64,000 nt of DNA from Candidatus Enterousia sp. (GCA_045645645.1 JAZRJE010000020.1:2249-66248); one strand, 5' to 3'; positions 16,454-59,419 are shown, numbered from the stretch's first letter. Made by a program: numbers and translations. The notes: generated by a model from the sequence alone, not told the origin.

Positions 16454-17725
16454 ATGAGTGACGATAAAACAACATCAATGCCACCAGCAGCGGAAAATAA
16501 TAATCAGTTCTGCAGTTTTTGTGGAAAGGCTGTGTATGAAGTAAAAAAATTGGTTAGTGGGCGTAATGTTTGTATTTGTGATGAGTGTATCAATCTGTGT
16601 AATGATATTATGGCTGATGATATCAAAAAAGAAGTTGCACATGATGCATCTAAATTGCCAACACCGCGTCAGATTTATAATTTCTTGAATGATTATATTA
16701 TTGGGCAAGAGGAAGCAAAACGTACCTTGGCAGTGGCGGTGTATAATCATTACAAGAGACACAGCGCCATAGTGAAGTCAAATGTTGAAATTCAAAAGTC
16801 TAATGTTTTGTTAGTTGGGTCTACGGGAACTGGTAAAACATTGTTTGCGCAAACATTGGCACGTATTTTAGATATTCCATTTGCCATTGCAGATGCAACA
16901 ACGTTGACCGAAGCTGGTTACGTTGGTGATGATGTAGAAAGTGTTTTAACACGTTTGTTGCAGAATGCTAATTTTGATGTTGAACGTGCATCACGTGGCA
17001 TTATATATATTGATGAAATTGATAAGATTTCACGTAAATCCGAGAATCCATCTTTGACACGTGACGTGTCTGGCGAAGGTGTTCAACAGGCTTTGTTGAA
17101 GTTAATAGAAGGTACTGTTGCGAATGTACCAGCTGGTGGTGCGGGGCGTAAGCATCCAGGTGAAGCGACAGTTCAGTTAGATACCAGTAAGATTCTGTTT
17201 ATTTGTGGTGGGGCATTTGATGGGTTGAATAAGATTATTGCGAATCGCTCGTCCGCAAGACGTGGAATTGGATTTGGTGCAAATGTTGAATCTAAGGAAG
17301 AGCGTGATGCAAAAAGCTATATTGCTGATGTTCAACCAGAAGATTTGGTAAAATTTGGTATTATCCCAGAACTGGTGGGAAGATTGCCTGTTATCACAAC
17401 TTTGCGAGAATTAGATGAAGATGCATTGGTGAAGATTTTGACTGAACCAAAAAATGCGGTTGTAAAGCAGTTTTGTGCAATGCTTGAAATGGATGGTGTT
17501 AAATTGAATATAACGGAAGATGCTTTGCGCGAAATTGCCAAAATGGCGGTTGCTCGTAAAACAGGTGCACGTGGCTTACGTGGTATTTTGGAACGTGTTT
17601 TAATGCAACCAATGTTTGATGCACCAGATAATGAGGATTTAGCTGAGATTTTGATAGATGCAGATGTTGTTAAGGGGAATAAGCCACCAATTGAAATTTT
17701 AGCTGATTCAAAAAAAGCTGCTTAA
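16454..17725 (+). CDS. clpX: ATP-dependent Clp protease ATP-binding subunit ClpX
   Basis: Zn-finger CSFCGK...CICDEC, Walker [18 protein letters not shown] and GARGLR. Confidence 0.95.
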
Positions 17726-17753
17726 AAAATCCACCGTTTTGGTGGATTTTTTT
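17724..17753. terminator. Bidirectional Rho-independent terminator
   Basis: AAAAAATCCACC-GTTTT-GGTGGATTTTTTT lies between convergent clpX and the OB-fold gene. Confidence 0.8.
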
Positions 17754-18123
17754 ATAATTTTTCAATATAGTTTATCTCAATCTCTGTTTTAAATATTCCT
17801 CTGTCAACTTCTCCGTACATTTTTACTGTGTCTGATGGTGTTATTGTTTGGCCCCGCCATTCGTCATCGTCTATTTCAACAGCAATCGATCCTGTTGCAT
17901 CTTCGAATAAGTATGTTTCACTGCCCATGCGTTGAACAATGTTACCTTTGACAATTACTGGTACATCATCACGCATTTCCATAATTTGTTTTACTGTCGA
18001 TATTGTTTCTGCGCCTGGCACAAATCCGCCCGCACTGGTATTTGTTGCGGCTGGTTGAAAATCTGCATTTGCGTATCCAATCATAGCGACGGATAAAATT
18101 GCAAAAATTGAAATTTTTTTCAT
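17752..18123 (-). CDS. YgiW/BOF-family periplasmic OB-fold protein
   Basis: Signal peptide MKKISIFAILSVAMIGYANA. GGF..G...TV..I..M.DD.PV.VKGNIV...G...Y.F.D.TGSI.VEIDDDEW.G pattern, typical of the family. Confidence 0.75.
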   Translation of the reverse strand: MKKISIFAILSVAMIGYANADFQPAATNTSAGGFVPGAETISTVKQIMEMRDDVPVIVKGNIVQRMGSETYLFEDATGSIAVEIDDDEWRGQTITPSDTVKMYGEVDRGIFKTEIEINYIEKL

Positions 18124-44978: not shown

Positions 44979-45680
44979 TTATTCGCGCCATGTAACGGAT
45001 GAAAACATTGAATTAATTTTGTTGCGCAGTTCTGCGTCATTAAAGAATTGTTCCCGAGATACAGAATCTGTTTTTGTGTCAGGTGTTTCAAAGTGTGGAA
45101 TATATTTTTGAATTGCTACATTTTTAACCTGATATGTTTTCAATATATCAACTATTTCTAGTAAATCAGATTTGTTTATATATCGTGGGTCGCACGTTAT
45201 ACGAACTTCAAAATCCTTGCCTGTGCCGCACCAGAATTCTAGTGATTTAATCATGTTTTTATATGCAATAGATTGACCAGTCAGATCGGTATACTTATTC
45301 TGTGTTGCTTTGAAATCTAGTCCAATCCAATCAATTGTATCTGCGGCTTTTTTTAATGTTTCTGGATAAAAACCATTTGTATGCAGACCAATTTTAAATC
45401 CCAGCTTGCGAATGCGTTGCATATATTCTATAACTGCATCACCTTGCATCAGGGCTTCGCCACCAGAAAATACAACTGCTTCTAATTTGCCAACTCTGGA
45501 TTGTAGCCATTCTTCTACGCGGTCTGGATCATATTCGCCGTCATGTGGGGTTAATAAATGGGGATTGGAACAATACGCACACCGCAATGGACATCCAACT
45601 AAAAACACCACAGACGCAAGTTTCCCAGGATAATCAATTGTGGTAAACGAAACCAATCCCCCAATTTGTATAGGCTTCAT
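44979..45680 (-). CDS. nrdG: Anaerobic ribonucleoside-triphosphate reductase activating protein (radical SAM)
   Basis: CPLRCAYCSNPH (CxxxCxxC); the start lies 4 nt after the stop of the small glycyl-radical ORF. Confidence 0.85.
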   Translation of the reverse strand: MKPIQIGGLVSFTTIDYPGKLASVVFLVGCPLRCAYCSNPHLLTPHDGEYDPDRVEEWLQSRVGKLEAVVFSGGEALMQGDAVIEYMQRIRKLGFKIGLHTNGFYPETLKKAADTIDWIGLDFKATQNKYTDLTGQSIAYKNMIKSLEFWCGTGKDFEVRITCDPRYINKSDLLEIVDILKTYQVKNVAIQKYIPHFETPDTKTDSVSREQFFNDAELRNKINSMFSSVTWRE

Positions 45681-45684
45681 AACA

Positions 45685-45864
45685 TTATGCCGCTTTTTTT
45701 AACAGTTCAGCGTGGCGACAACCTGCGCTAAGGCAGTTTGGTTCTGTAAATGTTTTTCGTTCACAGAATTCAGAATACTTACCAATGTTAAAATTTGATA
45801 CAGGGCGAATAAATCCCATAGAGCGTGAAAATACTTCGCAACGTGTTCTTTGGCAGTTAGTCAT
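45685..45864 (-). CDS. 59-aa stand-alone NrdD C-terminal glycyl-radical domain (not in the ORF track, below its 60-aa cutoff)
   Basis: AGGGAGGAAA SD at 45871-45880. My translation: MTNCQRTRCEVFSRSMGFIRPVSNFNIGKYSEFCERKTFTEPNCLSAGCRHAELLKKAA. R-x-x-G-[YF]...N-x-G-K..E...R is the glycyl-radical signature of class III RNRs. Confidence 0.75.
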   Translation of the reverse strand: MTNCQRTRCEVFSRSMGFIRPVSNFNIGKYSEFCERKTFTEPNCLSAGCRHAELLKKAA

Positions 45865-45904
45865 AGCGTGTTTCCTCCCTTTCTTTTTTGCTGACTGTTA
45901 TTTT

Positions 45905-47929
45905 TTATGCCTGATTTGCGCCGTTTTCTGCGTCGCATTTCGGACAAAATTCATGTTTCCCAGGCAAATAGCCATGTTTCGGACAAATTGAGAATGTTGG
46001 TGTCAATGTCATATATGGCACTTTATAATTTTCAAATATTGTTCGAACAATTTTTTGTGCGGCATCGCCAGATGAAACTGGTTCTCCCATATACAGGTGT
46101 AGCATTGTTCCGCCTGTATATTTACGCTGTAATTCTTCCTGGTGTTCTAGTGCAACGAATGGATCATCAGTAAAGTTTACAGGTAATTGGGTTGAATTCG
46201 TATAATATGGTGCGTCCCTGGTCCCAGCTGTTATAATGTCTGGGAAATTTTTGACGTCTGTTTTTGCAAATCTATATGAACATCCTTCGGCTGGTGTTGC
46301 TTCCAGGTTGTACAAGTTTCCTGTTTGTTCTTGAAAGTTTGCCAGATTTTCGCGAATAAAGTCCATAACATCCAAAACTAACTTTTTCCCAAATACAGTT
46401 GCTATATTGTCGGAACCATTTGTAAAGTTCATAACCATTTCATTAGCACCGTTTACACCAATTGTTGAAAAGTGGTGATTCCAGTCGCCTAAATAGCGAC
46501 GTGTAAATGGATACAAGCCACGTTCCATGTTTTTGGTAATGATCTTACGCTTTATCTCTAGACTGTCGCGGCCCAGATCCAGTAAGCGTTTTAATTCGCG
46601 AAATAATCCTTCGCGGTTACCCTTATGGATATAACCTAAGCGTGCCAGGTTTATTGTAACAACACCTATTGAGCCTGTCTTTTCCGCTGAGCCAAACAGA
46701 CCGCCACCACGTTTCAATAATTCACGTACATCTAGACGTAAGCGACAGCACATAGAACGAACATCTGTTGGGTTCAAGTCAGAATTTAAGAAGTTCTGAA
46801 AGTTTGGAATCCCATATTTTGCAGCCAATTCAAATAATGGTTTTACATTTGGATGATTCCATGGAAAATCTGGTGTAATGTTATATGTCGGAATTGGAAA
46901 TGTAAATGGTCGACCCAATGCATCCCCTTCGGTCATGACTTCGATAAACGCTTTGTTTATCATGTCCATTTCTGCTTGCAGTTCTCCATACGTAAAATCA
47001 ACTTGTTTACGGCCAATAAATGGACGTTGATCACGTAAATCTGTTGGACAAGTCCAATCAAATGTGAAATTTATAAATGGTGTTTGTGTGCCCCAACGAC
47101 ATGGAACACCACAGTTAAACACTAACGTTTGCATGGCATTTTTGACATCTGCATATGATAAGTTGTCGATACGTACATATGGTGCCAGATATGTGTCAAC
47201 TGATGAAAATGCTTGGGCGCCGGCGAATTCATTTTGCAGTGTACCCAGGAAGTTGACCATGTGTGAAATCGCCGTTGCCATGTGTTTGGCTGGTTCGCAA
47301 TGCAGGTATCCAGGAACGCCGTTGAAACCTTCGTATAACAGTTCTCTTAGGGACCAGCCTGCACAATATCCTGTTAACCAACCCAAATCATGTACGTGAA
47401 TTGCCGCATTTTTATGTGCCTCTGCAACTGCACGTGGATATAAGTTTAACCAATATTCAGCGGTTACACGTTCTGATGTGCGTAAAATTAAACCGCCAAT
47501 TGAATAGCCTACATTCGCATTTTCCTTTATGCGCCAATTAGAACCACCAACATATCCTTCGATTATATCTACGGCATCTACCATCGATTCGCGAATTTCA
47601 GTGCGTTTCTGACGATATATGATGTATGATTCTGCTGTCTTATATGCACCATTATCCATCAGTGTTCTGATAACTGTATCCTGGATTGTTTCGACAGATG
47701 GCGTGCGTTCTGCAAATTCTGCCCCTAATGTGTCCAGTACAGATTGTGTGATAGATATAATTTGTTCATTACTTAATTCTGTTGTAACATCAACCGCGCG
47801 TTTGATTGCATTATAAATTTTGATTGCATCAAAGGGAACCGTTTCGCCACCACGCTTTTGAACCGCAACTAGCTTGGTTGTTAATGTTGGTGTAATTTCG
47901 ATTTTTGTTTCAATATGTGTTTCTGACAT
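45905..47929 (-). CDS. nrdD: Anaerobic ribonucleoside-triphosphate reductase large chain; ends right after the Zn-ribbon and lacks the glycyl-radical motif
   Basis: ATP-cone N-terminus (VQKRGGETVPFDAIKIYNAIKRA), conserved core, C-terminus ...SICPKHGYLPGKHEFCPKCDAENGANQA followed by a stop. Confidence 0.9.
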   Translation of the reverse strand: MSETHIETKIEITPTLTTKLVAVQKRGGETVPFDAIKIYNAIKRAVDVTTELSNEQIISITQSVLDTLGAEFAERTPSVETIQDTVIRTLMDNGAYKTAESYIIYRQKRTEIRESMVDAVDIIEGYVGGSNWRIKENANVGYSIGGLILRTSERVTAEYWLNLYPRAVAEAHKNAAIHVHDLGWLTGYCAGWSLRELLYEGFNGVPGYLHCEPAKHMATAISHMVNFLGTLQNEFAGAQAFSSVDTYLAPYVRIDNLSYADVKNAMQTLVFNCGVPCRWGTQTPFINFTFDWTCPTDLRDQRPFIGRKQVDFTYGELQAEMDMINKAFIEVMTEGDALGRPFTFPIPTYNITPDFPWNHPNVKPLFELAAKYGIPNFQNFLNSDLNPTDVRSMCCRLRLDVRELLKRGGGLFGSAEKTGSIGVVTINLARLGYIHKGNREGLFRELKRLLDLGRDSLEIKRKIITKNMERGLYPFTRRYLGDWNHHFSTIGVNGANEMVMNFTNGSDNIATVFGKKLVLDVMDFIRENLANFQEQTGNLYNLEATPAEGCSYRFAKTDVKNFPDIITAGTRDAPYYTNSTQLPVNFTDDPFVALEHQEELQRKYTGGTMLHLYMGEPVSSGDAAQKIVRTIFENYKVPYMTLTPTFSICPKHGYLPGKHEFCPKCDAENGANQA

Positions 47930-47951
47930 TTTTAAACTCCAATACTATAAA

Positions 47952-47967
47952 ACACAATATATAGTGA
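47952..47967 (-). promoter_or_regulatory. NrdR-box-like palindrome (proximal)
   Basis: ACACAATATATAGTGA, 23 nt upstream of the nrdD ATG. It matches the 16-bp NrdR box consensus as I recall it (acaCwAtATaTwGtgt). Confidence 0.6.
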
Positions 47968-47983
47968 TGTTTTGTTGCGTTTG

Positions 47984-47999
47984 ATAACAATATATAGTT
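47984..47999 (-). promoter_or_regulatory. NrdR-box-like palindrome (distal)
   Basis: ATAACAATATATAGTT, 32 bp centre-to-centre from the proximal box, which is the typical tandem spacing. Confidence 0.5.
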
Positions 48000-48347
48000 T
48001 TTTTGAGTTTCAGACAATATCTAAAACATAAATTTTTTTTATTTTTTACTTTACTTTTTAAAATGTTAAATTTCTGCATATTTGCGCATGAAAACAGAAT
48101 CGGTGGTTTAATACGAAATGTTCTTTTGTGTAAAGATTTTGTTGTTTTGTATATAGGAACTGATTCGTTTATATCGTGATAATACAAAATATAGATGTCG
48201 AATCAGTTGTTGGTACTATATATTGATGATATGAAGAATGTTTTCTTTAAAATAGGTTGTGTTTCCCATAAAAAACGGCTACATTGTTGTTTGTATGAGG
48301 TAATGGTGCCTCATAAAAAGCTTAACGTATAAATAAAGAGCATTATT

Positions 48348-49937
48348 ATGATTAAAAATATTTATGAAATGCTGCATCAGGCGTGTGTTCAGAACAAGGA
48401 TCGTATTTTCTTTGTCAGACAAAACGAAACTTATGCAGATTTGTTAAGAAAGGTGAAACAGCGTGCTGTTACATTGGCAAAGCGATTTGGTGTTAAAAAG
48501 GGGGATACTGTTGCAATTTTGTCGGGTAATACCCCAGAATTTATCAAATCATATTTTGCCGTTACATCCCAAGGGGCGCGTGTTTTGATGTTGGATACAG
48601 GTCTGCAGCCTGCAGAGCATATTAATATGATGAAGCGGACTGATTGTAAATTGGTATTAGCGCAAAAAAATTATTTTATTGATGATGCACCAGCTCAAAT
48701 GATTGATATTGAGATGATTGATGATACCGATGATCAAGATTTTGTTGCCGCAGATGTGGGACGTAATGATATTGCACAAGTGTCTTTTACTTCTGGATCA
48801 ACTGGCAATCCAAAGGTTGTTGGTTTAACGCATAATAATTTGTTGTCATTGGCAGATGGGGCGCAATTTTATAAAGATGTGATTTTTCCTGGATATACAT
48901 TTTATGGTTTTTTACCTCTATACCATATATATGGTGTGGTGATTAATATTATTGTACCAGTGGCGTTGCATGGAAAGTTGTTGTTGCAGCCTGTGTTAAA
49001 ACCACAAGAATTTTTAAAGGATTTTAGGCAGTATAAGCCAGAGGTTATTCCAGCTGTACCCCGTATTTGGGAAGTTTTCTATAAAAAGATTGTAGATGCT
49101 GCGCGTGCAAAGCATGCGTGGACGTTAATTCGTGTTGTTGTTTCTTTACGTCATGTGTTGCGTGCAATTGGTCTGGGGGGGATTGTAAAAAAAGTAACTA
49201 AGCCAATTCATGATTTGTTCGGTGGTAATACCAAAGTTTTGGTGTCTGCAGGTGCGACATTGAAACCATCTATTCGTAAATTTTATGAAAGATTGGGATT
49301 TGTTGTTGGTGATTGTTATGGTTTGACAGAAACAACGGGACCTAGCAACTTTAATTTTGCATTTCGTCGTGCGAATGGTCAGATGTATTATGCAGGGCCG
49401 TTGTTGGGTAACGAATTAAAGATTCATAATCCAAATAAAGAGGGAGTAGGTGAAATTTGGATTCGGGGAAATATGGTTATGCCAGGTTATATCGGTAATG
49501 ACGAAGCAAATGCAGCTGCCTTTGAAGATGGTTGGTTCAAGACGGGCGATATCGGCATGTTGGATAAAAAACGTCGATTGATTGTAAAAGGACGTCAAAA
49601 GCAAGTCATTGTTTTAGATAGTGGTAAGAATGTTTATCCAGATGAACTGGAAGATTTGTATATGCAAAATGATGAAATATTGGCTGCTGCTGTATTTGAA
49701 TATGTTATAAAAGGTAAAATTGTCCCATATGGCGTATTTCAGGTAAAGCCAGGAACAAGTGTTGAACGTATCGAATTTTTGATTAAAAAATCAAATTTGT
49801 CGATTGCGCAGTATAAGTGGGTAAAGCATTTTGCGATTACAGAAGAAGAATTGCCACAAACTTCAGCAAAGAAAATTAAGCACTTTGCGGTACGTGAAAT
49901 GCTGGAAAATGACGCCTTTGTTCGTGCAGATAAATAG
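48348..49937 (+). CDS. AMP-dependent synthetase/ligase (acyl-CoA synthetase-like)
   Basis: SFTSGSTGNPKVVGLTHNNL, YGLTETTG, GWFKTGDIG, and a K near the C-terminus (SAKKIKH). Confidence 0.8.
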   Translation: MIKNIYEMLHQACVQNKDRIFFVRQNETYADLLRKVKQRAVTLAKRFGVKKGDTVAILSGNTPEFIKSYFAVTSQGARVLMLDTGLQPAEHINMMKRTDCKLVLAQKNYFIDDAPAQMIDIEMIDDTDDQDFVAADVGRNDIAQVSFTSGSTGNPKVVGLTHNNLLSLADGAQFYKDVIFPGYTFYGFLPLYHIYGVVINIIVPVALHGKLLLQPVLKPQEFLKDFRQYKPEVIPAVPRIWEVFYKKIVDAARAKHAWTLIRVVVSLRHVLRAIGLGGIVKKVTKPIHDLFGGNTKVLVSAGATLKPSIRKFYERLGFVVGDCYGLTETTGPSNFNFAFRRANGQMYYAGPLLGNELKIHNPNKEGVGEIWIRGNMVMPGYIGNDEANAAAFEDGWFKTGDIGMLDKKRRLIVKGRQKQVIVLDSGKNVYPDELEDLYMQNDEILAAAVFEYVIKGKIVPYGVFQVKPGTSVERIEFLIKKSNLSIAQYKWVKHFAITEEELPQTSAKKIKHFAVREMLENDAFVRADK

Positions 49938-49958
49938 AGAGCAGGGTGATTCGTACTG

Positions 49959-49989
49959 AAAAAACCAGATGTAAAAAATCTGGTTTTTT
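49959..49989 (+). terminator. Rho-independent terminator
   Basis: AAAAAACCAGAT-GTAAAAA-ATCTGGTTTTTT. Confidence 0.8.
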
Positions 49990-49995
49990 GCGGTC

Positions 49996-50024
49996 TTGAC
50001 AAAAGTTGTTTTGTCTACTATATA
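49996..50024 (+). promoter_or_regulatory. sigma70-like promoter (TTGACA-17-TATATA)
   Basis: TTGACA at 49996-50001, 17-nt spacer, TATATA at 50019-50024. Confidence 0.5.
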
Positions 50025-50050
50025 AATAAATGTTTGGTGCGGGGGTCGAA

Positions 50051-50596
50051 ATGCGTAAACGTAACCGTGGAACTTTGATGCAGGCTAAGGCTGATATGGA
50101 TGTGCGGGTGCAACAATTGCGTGATGTTGTTGCGCGTGGTGCTTGTGCAACAAAGCGTTTACCTTTGCTGAGAGAGGAGTTGCAGGCAACACAGTTTTAT
50201 CAGCGTACTAATTGTATGTATGAATCGATTCGGTATCAAGACGATGAAAAGGCCCCAGAAGATTTAGAGTTTGAAATAAATGTGTTGGAACGTGAGGTTA
50301 AACAAGCGGATTCTGCCAAGCTAGAATTGACAAAGGCAGCTAGTTTTTATCGTGCATATCATTTGGTTGTATTTGGACCAAAGTTGCGTGATTTAAGAAG
50401 TAGATTGAACGCTGCAGAATATTGGGCAGAACAATGGAAAAATAATTTGTTGGAAATTGGGCTGGATTCTGAAAAGAATGATGATGAATCTATTTATGAT
50501 AAGTCTCATTTTGAGTGCGAATATGCCCGTGTTAATGAAGAAATTTTTAAGTTGCGTGCTAAAATAACAGAAATTCAAAACATCAAATATATGTGA
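50051..50596 (+). CDS. Hypothetical coiled-coil protein
   Basis: GGGGG SD before the ATG at 50051. The ORF-track ATG at 50030 lies only 5 nt after the -10 element. The sequence is helical and heptad-like. Confidence 0.55.
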   Translation: MRKRNRGTLMQAKADMDVRVQQLRDVVARGACATKRLPLLREELQATQFYQRTNCMYESIRYQDDEKAPEDLEFEINVLEREVKQADSAKLELTKAASFYRAYHLVVFGPKLRDLRSRLNAAEYWAEQWKNNLLEIGLDSEKNDDESIYDKSHFECEYARVNEEIFKLRAKITEIQNIKYM

Positions 50597-50646
50597 TAGA
50601 TACAAATTAACGGAAAAGCAAAAATAAATAATTTTTTACTAAATGG

Positions 50647-50674
50647 TTGACAAAATAAAAATATGTGTTATATA
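50647..50674 (+). promoter_or_regulatory. sigma70-like promoter (TTGACA-16-TATATA)
   Basis: TTGACA at 50647-50652 and TATATA at 50669-50674. Confidence 0.5.
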
Positions 50675-50709
50675 TTTGGGCGACAAACAATATAACAAAG
50701 GATTTTATT

Positions 50710-50952
50710 ATGTATATCGAAAGTCATTTGATAGAAGGTTCGTTGGGTTTGGCAACAAATGATACTGTTGTTGCTGATGTTGTACCAAATGAAGAAAAGT
50801 ATGTTGAACCTGTTTTCGACAGTACAATTATTGATACCCCAGCAGAGGTGCGTACACCATCTTCTGAATGTTTGCGTTGCGCGTATAATGCATTCGCTGA
50901 TAGCTTGGGTTGTGTAAGTTCTTTTGGATTATGTCCATATTTGGTACGCTAA
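50710..50952 (+). CDS. 80-aa hypothetical protein with an acidic N-terminal part and a Cys-rich C-terminus
   Basis: AAGGA lies 9 nt upstream of the ATG at 50710. MYIESHLIEGSLGLATNDTVVADVVPNEEKYVEPVFDSTIIDTPAEVRTPSSECLRCAYNAFADSLGCVSSFGLCPYLVR. Confidence 0.45.
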   Translation: MYIESHLIEGSLGLATNDTVVADVVPNEEKYVEPVFDSTIIDTPAEVRTPSSECLRCAYNAFADSLGCVSSFGLCPYLVR

Positions 50953-51033
50953 TGGGGTTATTGTTATTTTTTGGATAAAAATATAATTTTTACCTTGCAT
51001 TTTGAATAAAATGCTATAAAATAACAGTCCGTT

Positions 51034-51110
51034 GCATCCATAGCTTAACTGGATAAAGCATCTGACTACGGATCAGAAGACTGAGGGTTCGAATCCTTCT
51101 GGATGCGCCA
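51034..51110 (+). tRNA. tRNA-Arg (anticodon ACG), CCA encoded
   Basis: I folded the cloverleaf by hand: acceptor GCATCCA/TGGATGC, D-stem GCTT/AAGC, anticodon stem TCTGA/TCAGA with loop CTACGGA, T-arm GAGGG-TTCGAAT-CCTTC, discriminator G, CCA. Total 77 nt. Confidence 0.92.
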
Positions 51111-52652
51111 CTTCTTTATTTCTCCCACATTTTCATCAAAAATATTGAAAATCGGCGCCAATTTTGGTGTTCCAAATTTTTCTGCAAAATCATATGAAAT
51201 TTGCTCAGGAAAACACAAGTTTAGAACACCCTGCCGTTTTTTGAAGTTCCCTGTGCGCCAAATATCCAATGGTCTGCGTATAAACTGCAAAACATATTCC
51301 GTTGCCTGGTCAAGTGGCATTGTCTCTATTTCCTGCACCTGCTGTTCATCGTTCAGTTGCTGTATCTGCGCCGTCAGCATGCTGATGCGTTCTTGGCACA
51401 TTGAAACAACCTCTGGTGGATTATTCGGGGTCATTAACAAATTGAATGCCTGGGTCTTTTCACGTTCTTTCTGCGCAATCAATGCTTGTCGTTCCGCAAC
51501 ACGCTGCTGCAAATCCGCTGTTTGTTCCTCATAAGCCCGTTGAATTGCACGCCCAGCCAGCGCAATAAAGCGCTGGTCTGGGGTTATTTTTTCCAAAATA
51601 CATTCCAAGTCTTGGTGTATTTCGTCTGGTTTTATGCCTTTGCCATACATGGGACAACCCTTGCAATAACAATGATAATACAAAAAGCGCTTGCCGCCTT
51701 TGCCTTTTGGGCGACTGGCGGTCAATGGCTTTCCGCATTTTGCACACTGAACAAAGCGGCGCAATGGGAATGTTTCATCTTCGGTATTATATTGCCGCGT
51801 CACCTTTTCATTCATGCGACCACCGTTCAGGCGTTCCTGAATGGCACGATATGTTTCCACTGAAATCAACGGTTCCATCGCCCATTTCTGGTATGGAATC
51901 CCCCATCGGGGATAAGCAAAGTATCCCGTATATTTTTCATTGGTTAACAGATTATGTATCGCATTATAGGTCAAACGAAACGGTCGCCCATCCCTGTAAA
52001 GACATAACGGCTTATCCCGCAAATATTCAAACACATCCCGTTGGGTCAGAAATCGGCACGATGCAAAGCCTTCCAGCGCAGTTTGAATAAATGTCGCTGT
52101 CGGTTCATTGCGCACCTGGTGCATGCGCCCATTCTTGCGAACTTCTTTTAAGCCCACAGGTGGCCGCATAACCCAAAAGCCCTGTTTGGCATGCTCAATC
52201 ATGTTGTTTTTCGTGCGCCCCGCATTTTTTTTACGTTCATATTGACTTAATGCTGCTGACACATTTTCCAGTAGTTCGCTTTCATCTGTATCCTCCAGCG
52301 TCATATTCACGGTTTGCAGCGAATGCCCCATTTTGCGAATTTGTTCACGCAAAATGCCATGAACAACCACATCACGAGCAAATCGGTTCAAATCAAATGC
52401 CAAGACAATATAATTCTGGTCTGTTTCGGACAAGAATTTCAGCATTTCATTAAACGCTGGCCTGTCTTGCTTTGCCCCCGAAACACCAGGTTCCATAAAC
52501 ACGCGGTCCACAGGCAGTCCTCGTTGCCTTGCCCATGCACGGCATGTTTGTTCTTGACTGTCCAGGCCTTGGCCATCTGTCACCTGGCGGCGGCTGGACA
52601 CACGACAGTAAATAACAACCCTTTTGGGGGATTCTTGGTTTAATTTAGGCAT
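51066..52652 (-). CDS. Large serine recombinase (integrase); its last 15 codons are encoded by the complement of the tRNA-Arg gene
   Basis: GGAG SD. Resolvase-type N-terminus VVIYCRVSSRRQVTDGQGLDSQ...LAFDLNRFARD. Recombinase domain, Zn-ribbon CAKCGK...CYCKGC and a coiled coil. The C-terminus ...EIKKWRIQKDSNPQSSDP reads through 51110-51066. Confidence 0.88.
   Translation of the reverse strand: MPKLNQESPKRVVIYCRVSSRRQVTDGQGLDSQEQTCRAWARQRGLPVDRVFMEPGVSGAKQDRPAFNEMLKFLSETDQNYIVLAFDLNRFARDVVVHGILREQIRKMGHSLQTVNMTLEDTDESELLENVSAALSQYERKKNAGRTKNNMIEHAKQGFWVMRPPVGLKEVRKNGRMHQVRNEPTATFIQTALEGFASCRFLTQRDVFEYLRDKPLCLYRDGRPFRLTYNAIHNLLTNEKYTGYFAYPRWGIPYQKWAMEPLISVETYRAIQERLNGGRMNEKVTRQYNTEDETFPLRRFVQCAKCGKPLTASRPKGKGGKRFLYYHCYCKGCPMYGKGIKPDEIHQDLECILEKITPDQRFIALAGRAIQRAYEEQTADLQQRVAERQALIAQKEREKTQAFNLLMTPNNPPEVVSMCQERISMLTAQIQQLNDEQQVQEIETMPLDQATEYVLQFIRRPLDIWRTGNFKKRQGVLNLCFPEQISYDFAEKFGTPKLAPIFNIFDENVGEIKKWRIQKDSNPQSSDP
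51104..51111 (+). repeat. Left copy of the 8-bp junction repeat TGCGCCAC (putative attL core)
   Basis: Identical 8-mer at 57766-57773. Confidence 0.5.
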
Positions 52653-52752
52653 TTTTTACTCCTTTTTTGGCCTTAAAGCGTCATGTAGGACGCCATTTAT
52701 AATCTGTGTCAGATGCCCCATTATTTCATGCACCTGTTGGTCTGTAAGGGCA

Positions 52753-52935
52753 TTATTTAATGCACCCAAACATTCCCTGCATTCCGCAAGCGATAGCAAA
52801 GCCATAACACAAATCTTTGTATTGGATTCGTGCTCTGGCGTATCCAGTCGCAGAATGAGCGGTTAATTGGTTGGCGATAGTTCTGGCATATCCAGTCACT
52901 ATTGCCAACAAGTTTAATATGTTGTTTTTAGCCAT
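52753..52935 (-). CDS. 60-aa hypothetical ORF (island)
   Basis: GGAGGTG SD. Its ATG overlaps the stop of the upstream ORF (ATGGCTAA). It contains the two palindromic sites, so coding status is uncertain. Confidence 0.35.
   Translation of the reverse strand: MAKNNILNLLAIVTGYARTIANQLTAHSATGYARARIQYKDLCYGFAIACGMQGMFGCIK
52835..52847. promoter_or_regulatory. 13-bp palindrome CTGGCGTATCCAG (operator-like), copy 1
   Basis: CTGG-N5-CCAG. A second copy, CTGGCATATCCAG, lies 48 bp away. Both lie 180-245 bp upstream of the recombinase start. Confidence 0.4.
52883..52895. promoter_or_regulatory. 13-bp palindrome CTGGCATATCCAG (operator-like), copy 2
   Basis: It sits in the 18-bp direct repeat TCTGGC(G/A)TATCCAGTC(G/A)C shared with copy 1. 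Confidence 0.4.
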
Positions 52936-53680
52936 TTAACACCTCCGTTGACTTAACAACATCGGACACAACACGGCCATTTTGGTATTTTATAACCCGT
53001 TCGCCAAACAGCGGATTTTCACCGCCGTCTGTTTCCGTGTATATTCGATTGCGTTCGGGTTCAATTTTCACTTTCTTAATGCCAGCCTGGCACAAACGCT
53101 GCGCAATCTTGCGTGGCAGTTCCAAAAAGCATTCCGCACCAAATTGAACAACCTTTTGCATTGCGCATTCATCGTTCAAAACACGCCCCAGGTTCACAAT
53201 CGTATGTGAATAGGTGTAATTGTCGCCATCAGCAACGATTGCTGGTAAATCATGCGCCAGGCACAGCCCAACACAATTATTGCCGTCAATCACCATGAAT
53301 GGCCTTTCATCCAATGCCAAACAATCGGCACGACATGCCAAAACTGCGAATTGCAGCATGCTGATATCACGATACATTGGCATGTCCAGGATTTTGAAAA
53401 TGCTTTTTATGCTTTCCAATCCCAGACCACGGCATTTCAGCACAAAGCCAATGCCTGCCCGTGCCACGTCCAGGGCGCTGATGCGTTCCTTATTTGGTTC
53501 GGCAATCAGTCCCCGTTTATGCCAATCGTTTAAGACACTGGCGGTTAAATCATCAAAATCCACATCATGCGCTGGATTTAGCAATTTAACCAGTTGATGT
53601 TCCATGACCTTTTCTGCGAATGCATCAAAGGTTGCGTGTGTTTGCAAACTAATAAGTTCGTTTTTTATAAAGTTCCCCAT
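52928..53680 (-). CDS. Hypothetical protein (island), possible MerR-like HTH near the N-terminus
   Basis: 250-aa ORF. LNDWHKRGLIAEPNKERISALDVARAGIGFVLKCRGLGLESIKSIFKIL resembles the MerR-type helix-turn-helix/wing pattern. The resemblance is weak. Confidence 0.4.
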   Translation of the reverse strand: MGNFIKNELISLQTHATFDAFAEKVMEHQLVKLLNPAHDVDFDDLTASVLNDWHKRGLIAEPNKERISALDVARAGIGFVLKCRGLGLESIKSIFKILDMPMYRDISMLQFAVLACRADCLALDERPFMVIDGNNCVGLCLAHDLPAIVADGDNYTYSHTIVNLGRVLNDECAMQKVVQFGAECFLELPRKIAQRLCQAGIKKVKIEPERNRIYTETDGGENPLFGERVIKYQNGRVVSDVVKSTEVLNG

Positions 53681-53803
53681 TTTTTTATCCTTTTGGTTTT
53701 GGGGTTAGCAACAGTTGCCGGACACACATCATTGTTTGTCCGGATTATTGCTCTCGACTGAATCGTGAGTCAAATCACATTTCACTCCGCAATGCAGCCG
53801 ACA

Positions 53804-53840
53804 TAAAAAAAGCCCGTGCGGACATTCACACCGCACAGGC
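53804..53840 (-). terminator. Rho-independent terminator (minus strand) inside the island
   Basis: On the minus strand: GCCTGTGCGG-loop-CCGCACGGGC followed by TTTTTTT. Confidence 0.6.
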
Positions 53841-53895
53841 CTCATAATCATTTATCTTTTTCGTATCACTCTTTGGGAAACTATTTTATTTTGAA

Positions 53896-53923
53896 CAAAA
53901 AAACACTGCCATAAATGGCAGTT
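53896..53923 (-). terminator. Rho-independent terminator (minus strand) inside the island
   Basis: On the minus strand: ACTGCCA-TTTA-TGGCAGT followed by GTTTTTTT. Confidence 0.55.
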
Positions 53924-53938
53924 CTTATAACTCTTTAT

Positions 53939-54127
53939 CCGAATCTTAATCACGAATCATAATAAACGAATCATAAACTAAAAACGAAAAGTGTAGAATT
54001 CCCCTTATATGAATTTTCATTCATGCTCCGATGAATCGTTAAATTGCCACTCTTTTGTTTTTGTTCATTTACACTCCTTATGAATCGTATCCGAATCATA
54101 ATGAAATATCCGCAATCCGAATCAGAA
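53939..54127 (+). repeat. Iteron-like array of GAATC-core direct repeats
   Basis: GAATC at 53941, 53954, 53968, 54033, 54082, 54093 and 54119, all on the same strand, plus an inverted copy at about 54190. Three copies share [AC]CGAATCATAA. Confidence 0.7.
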
Positions 54128-54446
54128 CAATCTCACCAAAGCCTTGCTGGACTTGGGATTGCGTGATTTTAGCATAAAATAAAAAAAGCGATTCGTCAAG
54201 CCCCAATGCCAGTTTTTTTGTCCATTGGACTTTTGGTTTTATTGGTGTTAAACTAGGAAATGAATCCAAGGGATTGGGTTCGGGGCTGTAGCAGGCCTTC
54301 TTGTTCGGTGCGAAAGCATCGTTAAATTGATGTTTCGGTGTTTTTTGCACCGTTATAACCCCGCATTGGTCGGGGAGCTGTGTGTTATACAACAGGGGCA
54401 ACCCAAAGACCACGGAATCAATAACAAGATGATTGCTAACTCCCCG

Positions 54447-54474
54447 ACCGCCATTCCGTTGGCGGTTATTTTTT
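54447..54474 (+). terminator. Intrinsic terminator/attenuator hairpin 17 nt upstream of a start codon
   Basis: ACCGCCA-TTCCGT-TGGCGGT followed by TATTTTTT. It overlaps an alternative 10-bp pairing, GGTCGGGGAG (54368-54377) with CTCCCCGACC (54440-54449). Confidence 0.5.
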
Positions 54475-54490
54475 GCGAAATGGGGAATAT

Positions 54491-55054
54491 ATGACACCGG
54501 AATATGTGCTATTTTTGTTAAAACAAGCGATTTGTAGTTTTTATGAACACGACCACAAATTGCTAGAGATTGCTGCACATGAGCGGGCGTGTGTTTCTAG
54601 AGTTGCAATTTATTTACAGCAATTATTAAACAAGGAACCCGATGCCAAAAATCTTTGCGTTGATTGCGACTATGGCAGTATGACAACCGATACAGGAGAA
54701 AAGTTCAAAAAATATATGGATGCAAATGGCGCATATGGAGGGGATGATGGGCAGTATGGGCGCATTTTTCCAGATTTAATCATTCATGAACGTGGAACAC
54801 AGCAAAACAATCTGTTAGTTGCCGAATTCAAGGGATATTGGCACACAGGCACATGGGGACAAGACCAAACGAAACTTGAACGCCTAACAGACAGGGCGCC
54901 TTCATTGAACCTCAAACCGTATTTTTGTTATCAGCATGGTGTGTTTATTGCACTGGGGCGACGACAAGCATATTTCGTTGAATTTGAAAACGGACAACAA
55001 ATATCAACCACAGCCACCATTGATGAACTATGCAAACGAAAGGAAAACCTGTGA
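54491..55054 (+). CDS. Hypothetical protein with a PD-(D/E)xK nuclease-like motif (island)
   Basis: GGGGA SD before the ATG at 54491 (the ORF-track start 54473 is TTG). RIFPDLIIHERGTQQNNLLVAEFKGYW fits the PD...E.K pattern. Confidence 0.4.
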   Translation: MTPEYVLFLLKQAICSFYEHDHKLLEIAAHERACVSRVAIYLQQLLNKEPDAKNLCVDCDYGSMTTDTGEKFKKYMDANGAYGGDDGQYGRIFPDLIIHERGTQQNNLLVAEFKGYWHTGTWGQDQTKLERLTDRAPSLNLKPYFCYQHGVFIALGRRQAYFVEFENGQQISTTATIDELCKRKENL

Positions 55055-55920
55055 ATAAGCCCATCTTAATTCTTGGAATGTTTATACTAACCGGGTGTGC
55101 CACACTAAGCAAAGAGGCGGTTGAAGCGCAGCGATTAACACAAAGCCCCGACTTGATAGAGGCGCTAAGAATATATACTGGAACAAATCCAACATATTGC
55201 AAAGAATATTGCGCCACACGGTCCTGGTGGTGTCAAACCGATTGCGAGCGTGATTCAAAAGATGCGCTTGCATTCAAAGACCAGAGTATAAATTATGATT
55301 GTTTGGACAAAAGCGAATATCAAATATATCGCACGGACGAGTGCGTCTTGTATCGGCGTGGGGTTCGCACATCGAAAATTAATTATTTTGATTTTAGCCG
55401 CTTTATTCCGCAAGACAGCCATATAAAAACAGAAGACGATTTTGTTGCTGTATCCAATAAGTTCCGTTCATTGAAATCAAAACTAGAAGCCTGCCAGAGC
55501 CAGAAAGAAAAAACAACCGCTGAAAAAAATGCATGCCAAGATGCGCTTTTAAGGCCGATTATTCGTTTTTCTGAACATGGGATACAACCATGCAAAGAGG
55601 TGTTAAGCACAGAATACCAAGCAATGTTAAAAAGCCAGGTTTCATGGTTTGAATGGGCGACCCACCATGACCCAAAAGAAAACATAGACACGTGCCTAGA
55701 TGCATATCGGCCACTTGTAAGCCAACTGAGCGCCCTGGGGCAAATGTATTCGGCCCGACAGATTGCGTCATATTGCACAAATATGCCAGAAAGCCCCATT
55801 TATAGTAAAAGTGAGGCGGTAGAAAAAATTCGGAAAACGGTGGAGCAGTTTGGTAAAGATAATTTTTGCGACACAAAAGACCACAATACCGAACTGAAAA
55901 AACTGGGACTAAATATATAG
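55051..55920 (+). CDS. Cys-rich lipoprotein (island cargo)
   Basis: GTGA start/stop overlap at 55051-55054. VNKPILILGMFILTGC lipobox. Multiple Cys. Confidence 0.6.
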   Translation: MNKPILILGMFILTGCATLSKEAVEAQRLTQSPDLIEALRIYTGTNPTYCKEYCATRSWWCQTDCERDSKDALAFKDQSINYDCLDKSEYQIYRTDECVLYRRGVRTSKINYFDFSRFIPQDSHIKTEDDFVAVSNKFRSLKSKLEACQSQKEKTTAEKNACQDALLRPIIRFSEHGIQPCKEVLSTEYQAMLKSQVSWFEWATHHDPKENIDTCLDAYRPLVSQLSALGQMYSARQIASYCTNMPESPIYSKSEAVEKIRKTVEQFGKDNFCDTKDHNTELKKLGLNI

Positions 55921-55928
55921 GACAAAAC

Positions 55929-56477
55929 ATGAAATTTAATTTGATATTTTTGCTGTTTTTGCTTTGTTCGTGTGTACAGTCGAATGAACAAAGTGTCATA
56001 AACGAAGTAGAAAAGACCACAGGTGTTGTTGACATTGTACAACAAGAACACGTGGACAACAAATTAAAACGTGTGCAACGCATGAATCATGAGCGGGGTC
56101 ACTGCATGGAATTATTCCCAAACGAATACCAAACCATGCTAGAAAGAACTCAAAGTTATTACGAAAGCCAAATGAGAAGCCATGAACATGAATTTTCTAG
56201 ATGTAAAGCGGCAAACCGGTGCATATTTTTACCAAGTGGCGAAAATATCACTGCTCCCGAATTAAAATCTAAATGTAAGGGGATGTGTGAACTTCAAGTC
56301 CCAACAGCAGAACAAATACTTGAGTCCGTAAAAGAGAGCATGCATAACTTTGCCCAATATCGTAAGTGTTCAACCGATGGCTGGGAGTCAGAGGTGCTAA
56401 AATACATTTGTCCGTGCGACGTATGCTACGACACGCCAATTTGTGCCCCGAATGCCCCAGTCCCAGCGCAAAAATAA
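55929..56477 (+). CDS. Cys-rich lipoprotein (island cargo)
   Basis: ATG at 55929. MKFNLIFLLFLLCSC lipobox. Multiple Cys, including CPCDVCYDTPIC. Confidence 0.6.
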   Translation: MKFNLIFLLFLLCSCVQSNEQSVINEVEKTTGVVDIVQQEHVDNKLKRVQRMNHERGHCMELFPNEYQTMLERTQSYYESQMRSHEHEFSRCKAANRCIFLPSGENITAPELKSKCKGMCELQVPTAEQILESVKESMHNFAQYRKCSTDGWESEVLKYICPCDVCYDTPICAPNAPVPAQK

Positions 56478-56857
56478 TTAAACACGCTGTCGAGCCACGA
56501 CAATGCGTTTGTCGCATATAGTATATAACACAACACCATGGCACAGGTGTATAATCCATATCCTATATCCATCATGCCAGTCCATATACCTGTCTACCAT
56601 ACCCCCACCCCCATGTGTGGGGTTAGAAGCGAGGGCAGGATAATAAGAATGCTTTTTTACAAATAATGGTTGCATTTCATTTTTACCGTGATATACATAT
56701 TTATGTCTCGTGGCAGGACACGCCGTTCGTGCAAAGACCAAGGTCATACCACCCAGCATAATATTAACCTATGGTGATGTTTATCTGGACAAAAATTTAC
56801 GAACTTCCAAAAAAATACAGATAATCAGCACCGAATAACAGAAATAAGGATAATATT

Positions 56858-57493
56858 ATGAATAATTTAAGTGTTTTTCAATCCCAAGCAAAACAATTAT
56901 TAAAAGACTTTAACGCTGGCAAGCCATTTGCATTAAACCGTGTTGCCGTGTATATTCACGACACAAGCAAATTCAGTTTAATGAAGGCGCAACATGTCAT
57001 TGCCAAAGAACAGGGATTCAATTCATGGGCCGAACTTACAAAGGACACGCCTGAGCATTTGGCGCTTGTAAAACAAATGATGAAATATCCCACATTAACA
57101 AGTTCTGGCTTCCTGCAACGCAACTTCAAAAAAACATATGCCGAATGGAAAAAAGAGTTTGATGAAGACCGTGCAGAATTATTTTCCACAGGCACAATAT
57201 GCAGCAACATTTTATCCAATTATGATATCGTGTTGAAAATTGCGGATTGGTTGCGCAAAAACATAGAGCCAATAAAAACACAAAATTTGCGTCACACAAG
57301 TTATGGTCATAAACATAGAATGGAACGCATGTTTGACCGAACTGAACCGCACCATGTGTATGTATCAAATGGTGTTTTCATAGCCGCCGCAATTTTGGCT
57401 GGTTTTATCCCTAAACCCCATGGCATTAACTGCACATTTAACATGAGTGAGCGCAGCTGGCAAACTGCATATAAAAAATTCAAAATGTATTAA
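56858..57493 (+). CDS. Hypothetical protein (island)
   Basis: 211-aa ORF preceded by AAGGA; no motif I can name. Confidence 0.5.
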   Translation: MNNLSVFQSQAKQLLKDFNAGKPFALNRVAVYIHDTSKFSLMKAQHVIAKEQGFNSWAELTKDTPEHLALVKQMMKYPTLTSSGFLQRNFKKTYAEWKKEFDEDRAELFSTGTICSNILSNYDIVLKIADWLRKNIEPIKTQNLRHTSYGHKHRMERMFDRTEPHHVYVSNGVFIAAAILAGFIPKPHGINCTFNMSERSWQTAYKKFKMY

Positions 57494-57765
57494 AGTCCAT
57501 AAATGCGCCGTTAAATCACAGTCCCAGAAAAAAAGAATGCTTTTTTCATGGGGCCCCAGTGCAAAAATGCACCAGGACCAGCATGAATTTTTATCACATG
57601 GTCATATGTTCTAATCTCTCTTTGTGGTAATATTCACATGTTTTGGGCTTTTTGCCTGTTGGGCATAGGTTTGCCGCACATCATCCAAAAGTCCCGCAGC
57701 GCAAATATATTCGGCGCTTTTCACGATTTCGGCATGCAAAATTTTCCAATGATTTAAGATATTAG

Positions 57766-57773
57766 TGCGCCAC
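57766..57773 (+). repeat. Right copy of the 8-bp junction repeat TGCGCCAC (putative attR core)
   Basis: Identical to 51104-51111; base composition shifts just to the right. Confidence 0.5.
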
Positions 57774-57780
57774 GAATTTA

Positions 57781-57805
57781 ATACCGCCTTTTGGCGGTGT
57801 TTTTA
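57781..57805. terminator. Bidirectional Rho-independent terminator (tdk, and presumably the original tRNA-Arg terminator)
   Basis: ACCGCC-TTTT-GGCGGT followed by GTTTTTATTTTT. Confidence 0.75.
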
Positions 57806-58384
57806 TTTTTTCTTTTGATTGATACCATGATATAGCATGTTGTAATGTTGGCGACATACCGATTTATAATTACTGTCACCAAGGGCAAATTGATTGCCTG
57901 CACGAATAACGTTGTCGTTTTTATCAAAGCGCAAGTGATGTGTGGCTAATTCCATACAGCCATTTATTTGACAATTTGATTCGTGCAGATGCAGTTCTGC
58001 ACCGACTTCAATTAAACGACGTGATGCTGGAAATATCTGTTCATTGCTGTCACACATCAATCCATAGCACATTACAGTTATGTTTAAAATGTCGGCAATT
58101 TGTACCAGTTTATCAATGTCTCTCGGAGAGAAAAATTGCACTTCATCAACTAATATTACGCGTGTGTTTGGGCTGGGGGTATATGTTTCTAAATTCGGTA
58201 TCGCAATAGCTTTTGTTTCAATGCCGATTCGGGATTTTACAGTGTCTTCAGAAAAACGTGTGTCGAATGATGGTTTGATAACTTCGGTTTTTACGCCGTT
58301 TTGATTATAATTATAAGCATTAATAATTAAAAGTGCTGATTTGGAACTGCTCATTACGCCATAATGAAAATGTAATGTGGCCAT
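57803..58384 (-). CDS. tdk: Thymidine kinase
   Basis: LHFHYGVMSSSKSALLI (P-loop region), ILVDEVQFF, C-terminal CQINGC...CRQHY Zn-ribbon-like Cys. Confidence 0.85.
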   Translation of the reverse strand: MATLHFHYGVMSSSKSALLIINAYNYNQNGVKTEVIKPSFDTRFSEDTVKSRIGIETKAIAIPNLETYTPSPNTRVILVDEVQFFSPRDIDKLVQIADILNITVMCYGLMCDSNEQIFPASRRLIEVGAELHLHESNCQINGCMELATHHLRFDKNDNVIRAGNQFALGDSNYKSVCRQHYNMLYHGINQKKK

Positions 58385-58483
58385 ATGCTTGTCTCCTTTG
58401 AAATAATATTGTTTAGTTGTCAGGATTTATATCAGAATTTTTCAAATCTGTCATGAAAAATATGATATAATTTATGTGCTATT

Positions 58484-59419
58484 ATGAATGTATATGGGAA
58501 AACTTTTGTGTTTTTATGTATTGCTGGAGGGGTATATGAAGCCTTTGCGGCTGGTTTTTTGCGTGCAGAATCTTTCCCTGGAACATTTCAGGATTTGTCT
58601 TTTGAAAGTCGTATGGCTGTGTTGGCTGATGGATATGATGGGTTTGAAACAAAATTTGAAAATGGTGTGTGTGTAGCAGGATGTCCATATAGGGGGATAA
58701 CAGTTCCAGAAATGGATGCCTTGATTATACAAAATACAGCTGCAGGAAATCTGGCAGCACAGCAGCTGATGAATAGCCAACCTGTTGTTGATATACAGTC
58801 GAATGATGCAGTTGTTCAGACTGTATATAATTATGGTACATCATCGCAAAGTCAAGATATGATATCCGATGTCGGGACGTCGGTTGCACAGTTGCCGCAA
58901 GTGCAACCAACATGGGAATGCAAGTATCATAGTGAAATTGTTAAATCGAATAATACTGTCCCAAATCAGGCTCCGTTGGATATTAATCTGGTTGTTACAT
59001 CAGATTATGGGTGGCGAAATGCACCTGTACGGGGGGCGTCTACAATGCATAATGGGATTGATTTGTTAGCATCATCTGGAACACCTGTTTATGTTCCTGC
59101 GTCGGGAACAGTCATTGAATTGCCTGGTGGAACATGTGGAATTGGGGTGACTGTTGATCATGGCGCTGGTTGGAAAACAAAATACTGTCATTTAAGTCAG
59201 CGAACAGTAAATATTGGTGAACGTGTTCAGTCAGGTTGTCAAATCGGGACTGTTGGAAACACAGGGGCCAGTACCGGGGCGCATTTACACTATGCAATAA
59301 TATATAATGATAAACCATATGACTTGTTGTACAGGATTAATCATTTAGGGCGTAGTTATCAGATGGATACATTATCGGTCAGTCGACCAGATGGTGTTGT
59401 TTTACCTGGGCGAATTTAA
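58484..59419 (+). CDS. M23-family metallopeptidase (secreted)
   Basis: Signal-like N-terminus. HNGIDLLASSGTPVYVPASGTV and GNTGASTGAHLHYAI. Confidence 0.85.
   Translation: MNVYGKTFVFLCIAGGVYEAFAAGFLRAESFPGTFQDLSFESRMAVLADGYDGFETKFENGVCVAGCPYRGITVPEMDALIIQNTAAGNLAAQQLMNSQPVVDIQSNDAVVQTVYNYGTSSQSQDMISDVGTSVAQLPQVQPTWECKYHSEIVKSNNTVPNQAPLDINLVVTSDYGWRNAPVRGASTMHNGIDLLASSGTPVYVPASGTVIELPGGTCGIGVTVDHGAGWKTKYCHLSQRTVNIGERVQSGCQIGTVGNTGASTGAHLHYAIIYNDKPYDLLYRINHLGRSYQMDTLSVSRPDGVVLPGRI

Follow-up and report, generated by a model that had tools for sequence, protein, structure and literature searches.

A 6.7-kb island of Candidatus Enterousia whose own large serine recombinase very probably inserted it at the 3' end of tRNA-Arg(ACG)

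Background

In the SSV1-type (type I) tyrosine integrases of archaea, attP lies inside the integrase gene, and integration partitions the gene. Among serine recombinases, the closest described case is DsiB of the ssrA-specific islands of Dehalococcoides, an enzyme of ~540 aa encoded at the island edge by attL: the 3' end of dsiB invariably extends across attL into that of the transfer-messenger RNA (tmRNA) gene, and the authors speculated that only the circle may encode a complete enzyme (McMurdie et al. 2011, PMC3146451). The Paracoccus phage vB_PamS_Pami6 has a serine recombinase associated with a tRNA-Met site (PMC6536676), and among the tycheposons of Prochlorococcus, 27 of 937 elements carry a large serine recombinase (LSR) instead of a tyrosine recombinase (bioRxiv 10.1101/2020.12.28.424599). 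The main text of the LSR survey of Durrant et al. defines targets as protein clusters and makes no mention of tRNA, and a survey of Mycobacterium prophages gives tRNA sites for tyrosine integrases only. Here we analyzed a 64,000-nt stretch of Candidatus Enterousia sp. (GCA_045645645.1 JAZRJE010000020.1:2249-66248), hereafter the window, in which a 6.7-kb island with an LSR gene lies at the 3' end of tRNA-Arg(ACG). Candidatus Enterousia is a gut and rumen Alphaproteobacterium; the genome analyzed, labelled G000, is 0.92 Mb in 22 contigs, and all positions without a genome or locus label are those of the window.

An earlier note, made from the sequence of the window, had proposed that an island of ~6.7 kb was integrated at the extreme 3' end of this tRNA by an LSR rather than by a tyrosine integrase. 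This proposal was borne out by an empty site, a shared core, a Pfam scan, occupied sites in three more species and the geometry of the LSR clade. It is thus very probable that positions 51112-57773 are a mobilizable island of 6,662 bp, which its own LSR inserted within GCGCCA, the six bases at the end of tRNA-Arg(ACG).

Results

The tRNA-Arg(ACG) gene (51034-51110, + strand) was found intact, as the earlier note had read it, by ARAGORN (for which it is the single tRNA of the window) and by Rfam (RF00005, 67.3 bits), and is 100% identical to the tRNA of six congeners; the Rfam scan of the window and four relatives returned nothing besides tRNAs. The two ends of the island carry direct copies of an 8-bp identity block, TGCGCCAC. 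The attL copy (51104-51111, + strand) consists of the last seven bases of the tRNA and one more; the last 6-7 nt of the tRNA supply the left core copy and also serve as the B arm of attB. The attR copy (57766-57773, + strand) is the recurrence that the earlier note had reported. Immediately beyond attR lies the native 3' flank of the tRNA (B' arm; 57774-57809, + strand), with a terminator hairpin (57783-57798) and a T run; it overlaps the stop of the convergent thymidine kinase gene tk (57803-58384, - strand; Pfam PF00265 at 1e-31) and matches the sequence found right after the CCA in the congeners G104, G015 and G019. The terminator of the tRNA is therefore displaced to the far end of the island. 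Among eight related elements, the identity block of attL and attR is 6-10 bp long and always includes the last six bases of the tRNA, in the form GCGCCA or, for the Arg-CCG elements, CGCACCA. Since the identity block of all eight contains these bases, the crossover is placed within them. An inverted second attP is absent: blastn-short of the 120-nt attP and of attB against 50000-59000 matched only the two junctions, and there is no reverse-complement core in the island. A third copy of TGCGCCAC is present within the G000 cargo (55210-55217), and the island of G080 has two extra direct copies near its right end (+8917 and +9298); with ~0.4 copies expected per 64 kb per strand, such internal copies may be chance occurrences or secondary sites.

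Joining 51111 to 57774 in silico places the hairpin ACCGCC-TTTT-GGCGGT, and then a T run, behind the tRNA. A search of the genus with the left flank of the window revealed this very arrangement in nature: the reconstructed site (50904-51111 plus 57774-57865) is collinear with G104:C13 13560-13860, base for base save ordinary divergence, where the end of a 95-aa open reading frame (ORF) is followed by the tRNA promoter, the tRNA, CGAATTCAAG, the hairpin and the convergent tk, with no insert. Thus the insert is 6,662 bp and spans 51112-57773, and the empty site that the earlier note had deduced, a tRNA followed by a hairpin terminator, exists as an allele of a relative. In G015 and G019 the CCA is followed directly by CGAATT and the hairpin.

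In most of the congeners examined, tRNA-Arg(ACG) lies ~50 nt downstream of tk on the same strand and is followed by a short spacer and a terminator hairpin. Convergent tRNA and tk genes occur in G000, G080 and G104, and the empty site of the form tRNA-hairpin-tk is specific to this lineage. Because the arrangement in G104 is convergent yet empty, the reorientation of tRNA and tk predates the insertion; an inversion of the tRNA made by the LSR, which had been considered, was dropped for the same reason. A larger island of 45-57.8 kb with the tRNA in its middle was also considered, as the 45-51 kb segment is unmatched near tk in relatives; it was rejected since NrdDG and the AMP-binding enzyme of this segment are host genes in G080 and G104.

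Several other features of the locus were observed. The 0.9-Mb genomes are heavily rearranged around the tRNA-Arg locus: i) the tRNA-Arg(ACG) unit (promoter, gene and terminator) changes its orientation relative to tk across the genus, with breakpoints exactly at gene boundaries (window 50977-51111 and 57774-58384; loci L034-L046 and L106); ii) in G002, tk is followed by 1.2 kb and then by the tRNA on the other strand; iii) a block of NrdG, NrdD, the AMP-binding enzyme and a 188-aa ORF (window 44979-50596), right beside the tRNA, is inverted in G104 (L106 7577-13220) relative to G000 and G080. Moreover, a conserved non-coding unit of 165-240 nt follows the tRNA-Arg terminator in many congeners (L037 10503-10685; L080 ~17650-17812; L035, L036, L038-L040 and L043-L045) and ends, in at least G021, G268 and G052, with a 19-21-nt copy of the tRNA 3' end. 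The unit is missing from G000 and has no Rfam match; it may represent a miniature or decayed element or else serve as a second attachment site.

The earlier note had also described a higher G+C content from the tRNA to about 57773. The elevation itself was confirmed: the G+C content of the island (42.3%) is above that of the rest of the window (39.4%) and exceeds that of every other 6.66-kb stretch (at most 41.9%). Its extent was not, as the rise is found mainly in 51112-53700 (45.0%; the recombinase and its neighbor), while the middle (40.9%) and the right part (40.1%) barely exceed the background. The shift is real but modest, with most of it in the leftmost 2.6 kb.

In its integrated (truncated) form, the LSR gene (51066-52652, - strand) encodes 528 aa and is the sole recombinase gene of the island. 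The enzyme matched Pfam Resolvase (PF00239, E 1.1e-27, residues 12-158), Recombinase (PF07508 at 2e-6; 28.1 bits against a cut-off of 21.1 bits) and PHROG 95 'integrase' (5e-57), and also had an NCBIfam match. The match to Zn_ribbon_recom (18 bits) is under the Pfam cut-off of 25.3 bits, but the four cysteines C303, C306, C328 and C333 are invariant in 26 LSR sequences, as are the catalytic motif I-Y-x-R-V-S-S-x-x-Q and the arginines R64, R90 and R93. The AlphaFold2 (AF2) model of a homologue, P0017, comprises an N-terminal domain (NTD), a recombinase domain (RD), a zinc-ribbon domain (ZD) and a coiled coil: the long alpha-E helix at 124-157 leads to the RD, and two long helices (378-407 and 411-440) are paired. 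In Foldseek the best matches of this model were full-length serine integrase-DNA complexes, with E-values of ~1e-16 (top 7e-17). Judged by these domain matches and the model, the 528-aa enzyme belongs to the LSR family, with catalytic domain, RD, Zn ribbon and coiled coil all recognizable, which agrees with its description in the earlier note as a single recombinase with a resolvase N-domain, a Zn ribbon and a coiled coil. The model of CcrB gave 73 bits with the LSR, against a cut-off of 900 bits. A Pfam scan of ten island ORFs, among them all three of at least 250 aa, detected no tyrosine-integrase domain, and tblastn of the LSR against 50,697 phage records found no relative at E 1e-20.

The LSR gene, at the outermost edge of the island, spans the attachment site. 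In the integrated state the ORF reads 45 nt into the tRNA (51066-51110), its last 15 codons and stop being the reverse complement of the 3' half of the tRNA, and the protein ends in W-R-I-Q-K-D-S-N-P-Q-S-S-D-P, a stretch translated from the opposite strand of the acceptor and T arms. When the circle was closed in silico across the core, on the other hand, the LSR frame ran 51 codons further, into 57611-57773, to give a protein of 567 aa. This detached 3' tail exon (57611-57773, - strand), which runs for 51 codons and a stop beyond the W-R codons common to both pieces, shares a frame with 51112-52652 only when the attP junction joins them. The same continuation of the frame was found in G080, G268 and G147, and a search with these tails located a counterpart next to attR, on its inner side, in four additional elements: G238 (tRNA-Arg(TCT)), G093, G052 and G292 (tRNA-Arg(CCG)). 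The split layout is thus common to eight related elements whose LSRs are 50-97% identical, and a motif of ~20 residues is common to the tails although the LSRs of the four added elements are only 50-57% identical. In P0017, a natural homologue of 574 aa, the tail is contiguous with the LSR, and full-length homologues in the databases span 565-582 aa. Because the conserved tail sits inside attR and is contiguous in P0017, a full-length LSR gene exists only in the attP form.

The same element was found in three other species of the genus. In G080 it has the same ends at the same tRNA, with matching P-arm sequence before the core and matching sequence after it, around an island of 9,407 bp with a different middle. 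G171 and G159 also carry LSRs at this tRNA, in G159 with the occupied tRNA in the tk-tRNA arrangement; across the three species the LSR is 96-97% identical at the aa level, and its ORF is intact in all four. Genes of the element are 90-93% identical in nt between species, while host flanks are 70-85% identical (NrdD 84%; tk 79% in G080 and 70% in G159). As the element genes are closer than the host genes, the element moved between these species after they had split. The backbone is conserved at both ends of the island: the LSR, a 60-aa ORF and a 250-aa protein make up its left part, a 211-aa protein and the tail exon its right part. The middle has been swapped: that of G000 holds a PD-Lambda-3_A-like gene and two ORFs, and that of G080 an Eco57I-type methylase and a ResIII/T5orf172 protein, i.e., a restriction-modification set. 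Going by this predicted gene content, the island appears to be a small carrier of phage-defence genes.

Association with tRNA genes extends well beyond the genus. In the host family, a tRNA on the opposite strand was found at the 3' end of the LSR gene in 26 of 29 loci with relatives 28-97% identical: Arg(ACG), Arg(TCT) or Arg(CCG) for the closest relatives, Thr(TGT) or Thr(GGT) for those 36-40% identical, and Tyr, Glu or Asn tRNA for those ~30% identical. We then took the best 80 loci from a set with one genome per species of GTDB; these come from Alpha- and Gammaproteobacteria, Peregrinibacteria, Saccharibacteria, Paceibacterota, Bacteroidota and others, and 79 have a recognizable catalytic motif. 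In 63 of these 79 best loci, the 3' end of an opposite-strand tRNA (58) or tmRNA (5) lies 1477-1504 nt past the catalytic motif, a range only 27 nt wide. This fixed distance from motif to tRNA ties the tRNA target to the enzyme itself rather than to a lost partner. The five relatives that abut tmRNA (33-34% identity; L119, L122, L127, L137 and L151) are from Saccharibacteria, Peribacteraceae and Peregrinibacteria and have the same geometry. A second, very distant LSR lineage was observed in G016:C16 (L034 8418-9926), where an enzyme of 502 aa and 22% identity overlaps the same tRNA-Arg by the same 45 nt; by such sequence comparison, tRNA-Arg appears to be a shared target of unrelated-looking serine integrases.

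Next to the LSR gene on the left side of the island are two backbone genes. The 60-aa ORF (52753-52935, - strand), a candidate accessory or directionality factor, is 81-85% identical in aa in G080 and G171 and has no family match in Pfam, PHROG, NCBIfam or PADLOC. The 250-aa protein (52928-53680, - strand) is 89% identical in aa in G080 and G171; a MerR/excisionase-type helix-turn-helix is a lead only, from a weak match to Pfam DUF1836 and Atlas feature matches to MerR_1 clusters (0.86-0.87) that are under the trust level of 0.9. This protein is 68% identical to the neighbor of an LSR in G046 (L074 443-1177, G046:C5) which is itself only 29% identical, and 41-42% identical in two further elements, and is absent from islands with LSRs that are 50-57% identical. 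Its distribution is out of step with LSR identity, and modules have therefore been shuffled between elements.

A 160-aa ORF (54096-54578, - strand) is partly conserved, with aa matches of 39-42% in the islands of G080, G171 and G052, and has no family match. The cargo includes the PD-Lambda-3_A-like gene (54473-55054, + strand; start codon uncertain), a candidate anti-phage component by its match to PADLOC PDLC03986 (E 5.9e-16, residues 18-164). Two cargo ORFs, of 296 aa (55030-55920, + strand; a 33% relative inside the LSR island of G052) and 203 aa (55866-56477, + strand), are possible partners of the defence gene; neither had a significant match in Pfam, PHROG, NCBIfam or PADLOC, and in G080 other genes take the place of this stretch. 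No second resolvase, ParB or Mom domain was detected in the ten island ORFs scanned (Pfam and NCBIfam), and no transfer or capsid genes were recognized in the island.

The 211-aa backbone protein (56858-57493, + strand) is 92% identical in aa in G080. Its AF2 model (pLDDT 80.5) has a winged-helix-like C-terminal domain, for which VIA gave Z 6.7 to the RFX DNA-binding domain and Z 6.1 to the origin-binding domain of phage P4, both under the trust level; Foldseek against PDB returned nothing significant, and Atlas no usable match. A role in DNA binding is weakly supported by the model. This protein raises the question of whether the island is a phage satellite or a small plasmid-like replicative element, with the LSR used for lysogeny-like parking and the 211-aa protein for origin binding or replication, an interpretation that is compatible with a mobilizable island inserted by its own LSR and to which we give a small but appreciable chance. 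It would be in line with the weak likeness to the P4 domain, with the matches of the protein to two PHROGs (9576 and 17839, neither with an assigned function) and with the spread of the element across species, which needs some route between cells. However, no capsid, terminase, primase, helicase or Rep family was detected with Pfam, PHROG and NCBIfam, the structural matches are under the level that separates real from common folds, and the LSR is without a relative in the phage records.

Discussion

The insertion of the island by its own LSR can be pictured as follows. On the excised circle the two pieces of the gene would be joined and the 567-aa LSR expressed, and this enzyme would integrate attP into attB by the usual serine-integrase route, i.e., double-strand cuts with a 2-nt stagger, subunit rotation and religation. 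The identity block of 6-10 bp is consistent with such recombination between short attP and attB sites, in which LSRs use a 2-bp crossover and need no host factors. As the terminal tRNA bases are also present in the attP of the island, insertion leaves the tRNA intact. Integration would also alter the enzyme that performs it, since the cell would then make the 528-aa form with the tRNA-encoded end. Excision may be carried out by this truncated form, perhaps with the product of the 60-aa ORF or the 250-aa MerR-like protein as directionality factor.

Several lines of evidence weigh against this scheme or parts of it: i) the attP junction was not found in IMG/VR or the JGI metagenomes, and neither a circular junction nor an excision product was seen; ii) the activity of the 567-aa and 528-aa forms is a prediction from the sequence; iii) the tail in the AF2 model of P0017 consists of two helices of low confidence (pLDDT ~55-65); iv) part of the conservation of the tail DNA could reflect a role as P arm in attP and not protein function, although the conserved motif spans ~90 nt and is longer than a usual half-site; v) no clear dyad symmetry was seen by eye in attB or attP; vi) the defence assignment is one hidden Markov model match to one component, and no match to a second PD-Lambda-3 component turned up in the adjacent ORFs even at E 5.

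Some of these points would equally fit a fixed relic, in which a single LSR insertion cut the enzyme gene, excision was lost and the island has since been passed on by vertical descent only. The integrated LSR is without the conserved tail, the circular junction was not recovered, and the flanking gene order is common to G000 and G080, all of which such a relic would explain. Against it stand the closer nt identity of element genes than of host genes between species and the LSR of G159, which is 93% identical in nt although tk is only 70% identical and the tRNA lies in a different local arrangement. Moreover, G104 shares the arrangement of G000 and yet is empty, cargo has been exchanged between G000 and G080, and the LSR ORF has stayed intact in four species. 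A relic is thus improbable. The remaining possibility, that another enzyme (a tyrosine integrase since lost or acting in trans) integrated the island and the LSR is cargo, a resolvase or an invertase, would suit the fact that tRNA 3' ends are classical targets of tyrosine integrases (PMC4383910) and that a short repeat alone names no enzyme, but is hardly credible given that no tyrosine-integrase domain was found in the ten ORFs scanned, that the LSR gene abuts and overlaps the att core with the same geometry in 63 of 79 loci of the clade, at many tRNAs and at tmRNA, that an identity block of 6-10 bp is short for tRNA-targeting tyrosine integrases, and that the LSR frame continues across attP into a conserved tail.

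With insertion by its own LSR as the preferred explanation, the splitting of the gene suggests a testable control of the direction of recombination. Tentatively, and at odds that we put below even, it may act as a built-in directionality or commitment switch: the full-length enzyme, made from the circle only, would integrate, while the form without the tail and with a tRNA-encoded end would be either silent, which would lock the island in place, or competent for excision. If so, the tRNA- and tmRNA-targeting LSR clade would control direction by gene topology, and not solely by a separate directionality factor.

With one clean empty allele and occupied sites in three more species, the island is a well-delimited counter-example to the rule that assigns tRNA genes to tyrosine integrases and protein-coding genes to serine integrases. 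It points to a large clade of serine integrases, present in Proteobacteria, candidate-phyla bacteria and others, that is tied to the 3' ends of tRNA and tmRNA genes with base-level regularity. In genome engineering, large DNA is preferably inserted with serine integrases, and those that use a short, universally conserved tRNA end as their natural attB could provide ready landing sites in many organisms. The element also illustrates how phage-defence genes may be exchanged among very small (0.9 Mb) gut symbionts.

Among known systems, the DsiB islands, as described, share with the G000 island its integrative nature, variable cargo and lack of transfer genes, and the 3' end of their LSR gene likewise extends over attL into the RNA gene targeted. 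On the other hand, they are found in tmRNA, where insertion is in the T-loop and the direct repeat measures 20 bp, while here the target is tRNA-Arg, with an 8-bp repeat (block of 6-10 bp) and a crossover in the last six bases; they also carry a small serine recombinase, DsiA, and a six-gene module (ParB/Mom/RecF), which the ten-ORF scan did not find in G000, and a conserved tail exon at attR was not described for them. The passages on Pami6 and the tycheposons describe neither an overlap of gene and att site nor a split gene, and that on the tycheposons does not state the LSR integration site. In the literature searched, which left most subscription journals outside, no published description of the conserved tail exon or of the breadth of the clade was found.

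Compared with the tyrosine-integrase islands at tRNA genes (Islander/Williams 2002 type), the G000 island is alike in its insertion at a tRNA 3' end, in supplying the displaced bases, which keeps the tRNA gene whole, and in having the integrase gene by the tRNA; the enzyme families are unrelated, however, and the duplicated segment is far shorter here (an 8-bp copy). The SSV1-type integrases are tyrosine recombinases of archaea and are split deep in the gene, whereas this LSR is split at its last ~50 codons. The serine integrases phiC31, Bxb1, A118/LI, TP901-1 and SPbeta SprA have the same architecture, from NTD through RD and ZD to the coiled coil, with Foldseek matches to their full-length structures at E 1e-16 to 1e-11, and likewise a short att core; unlike this LSR, the large serine integrases of phages and integrative and conjugative elements use protein-coding or intergenic targets, and their genes are unsplit by integration. 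The island is therefore not categorically new, but a variant of the known serine-integrase elements, with a tRNA end as its target and with attP inside the gene of its own enzyme.

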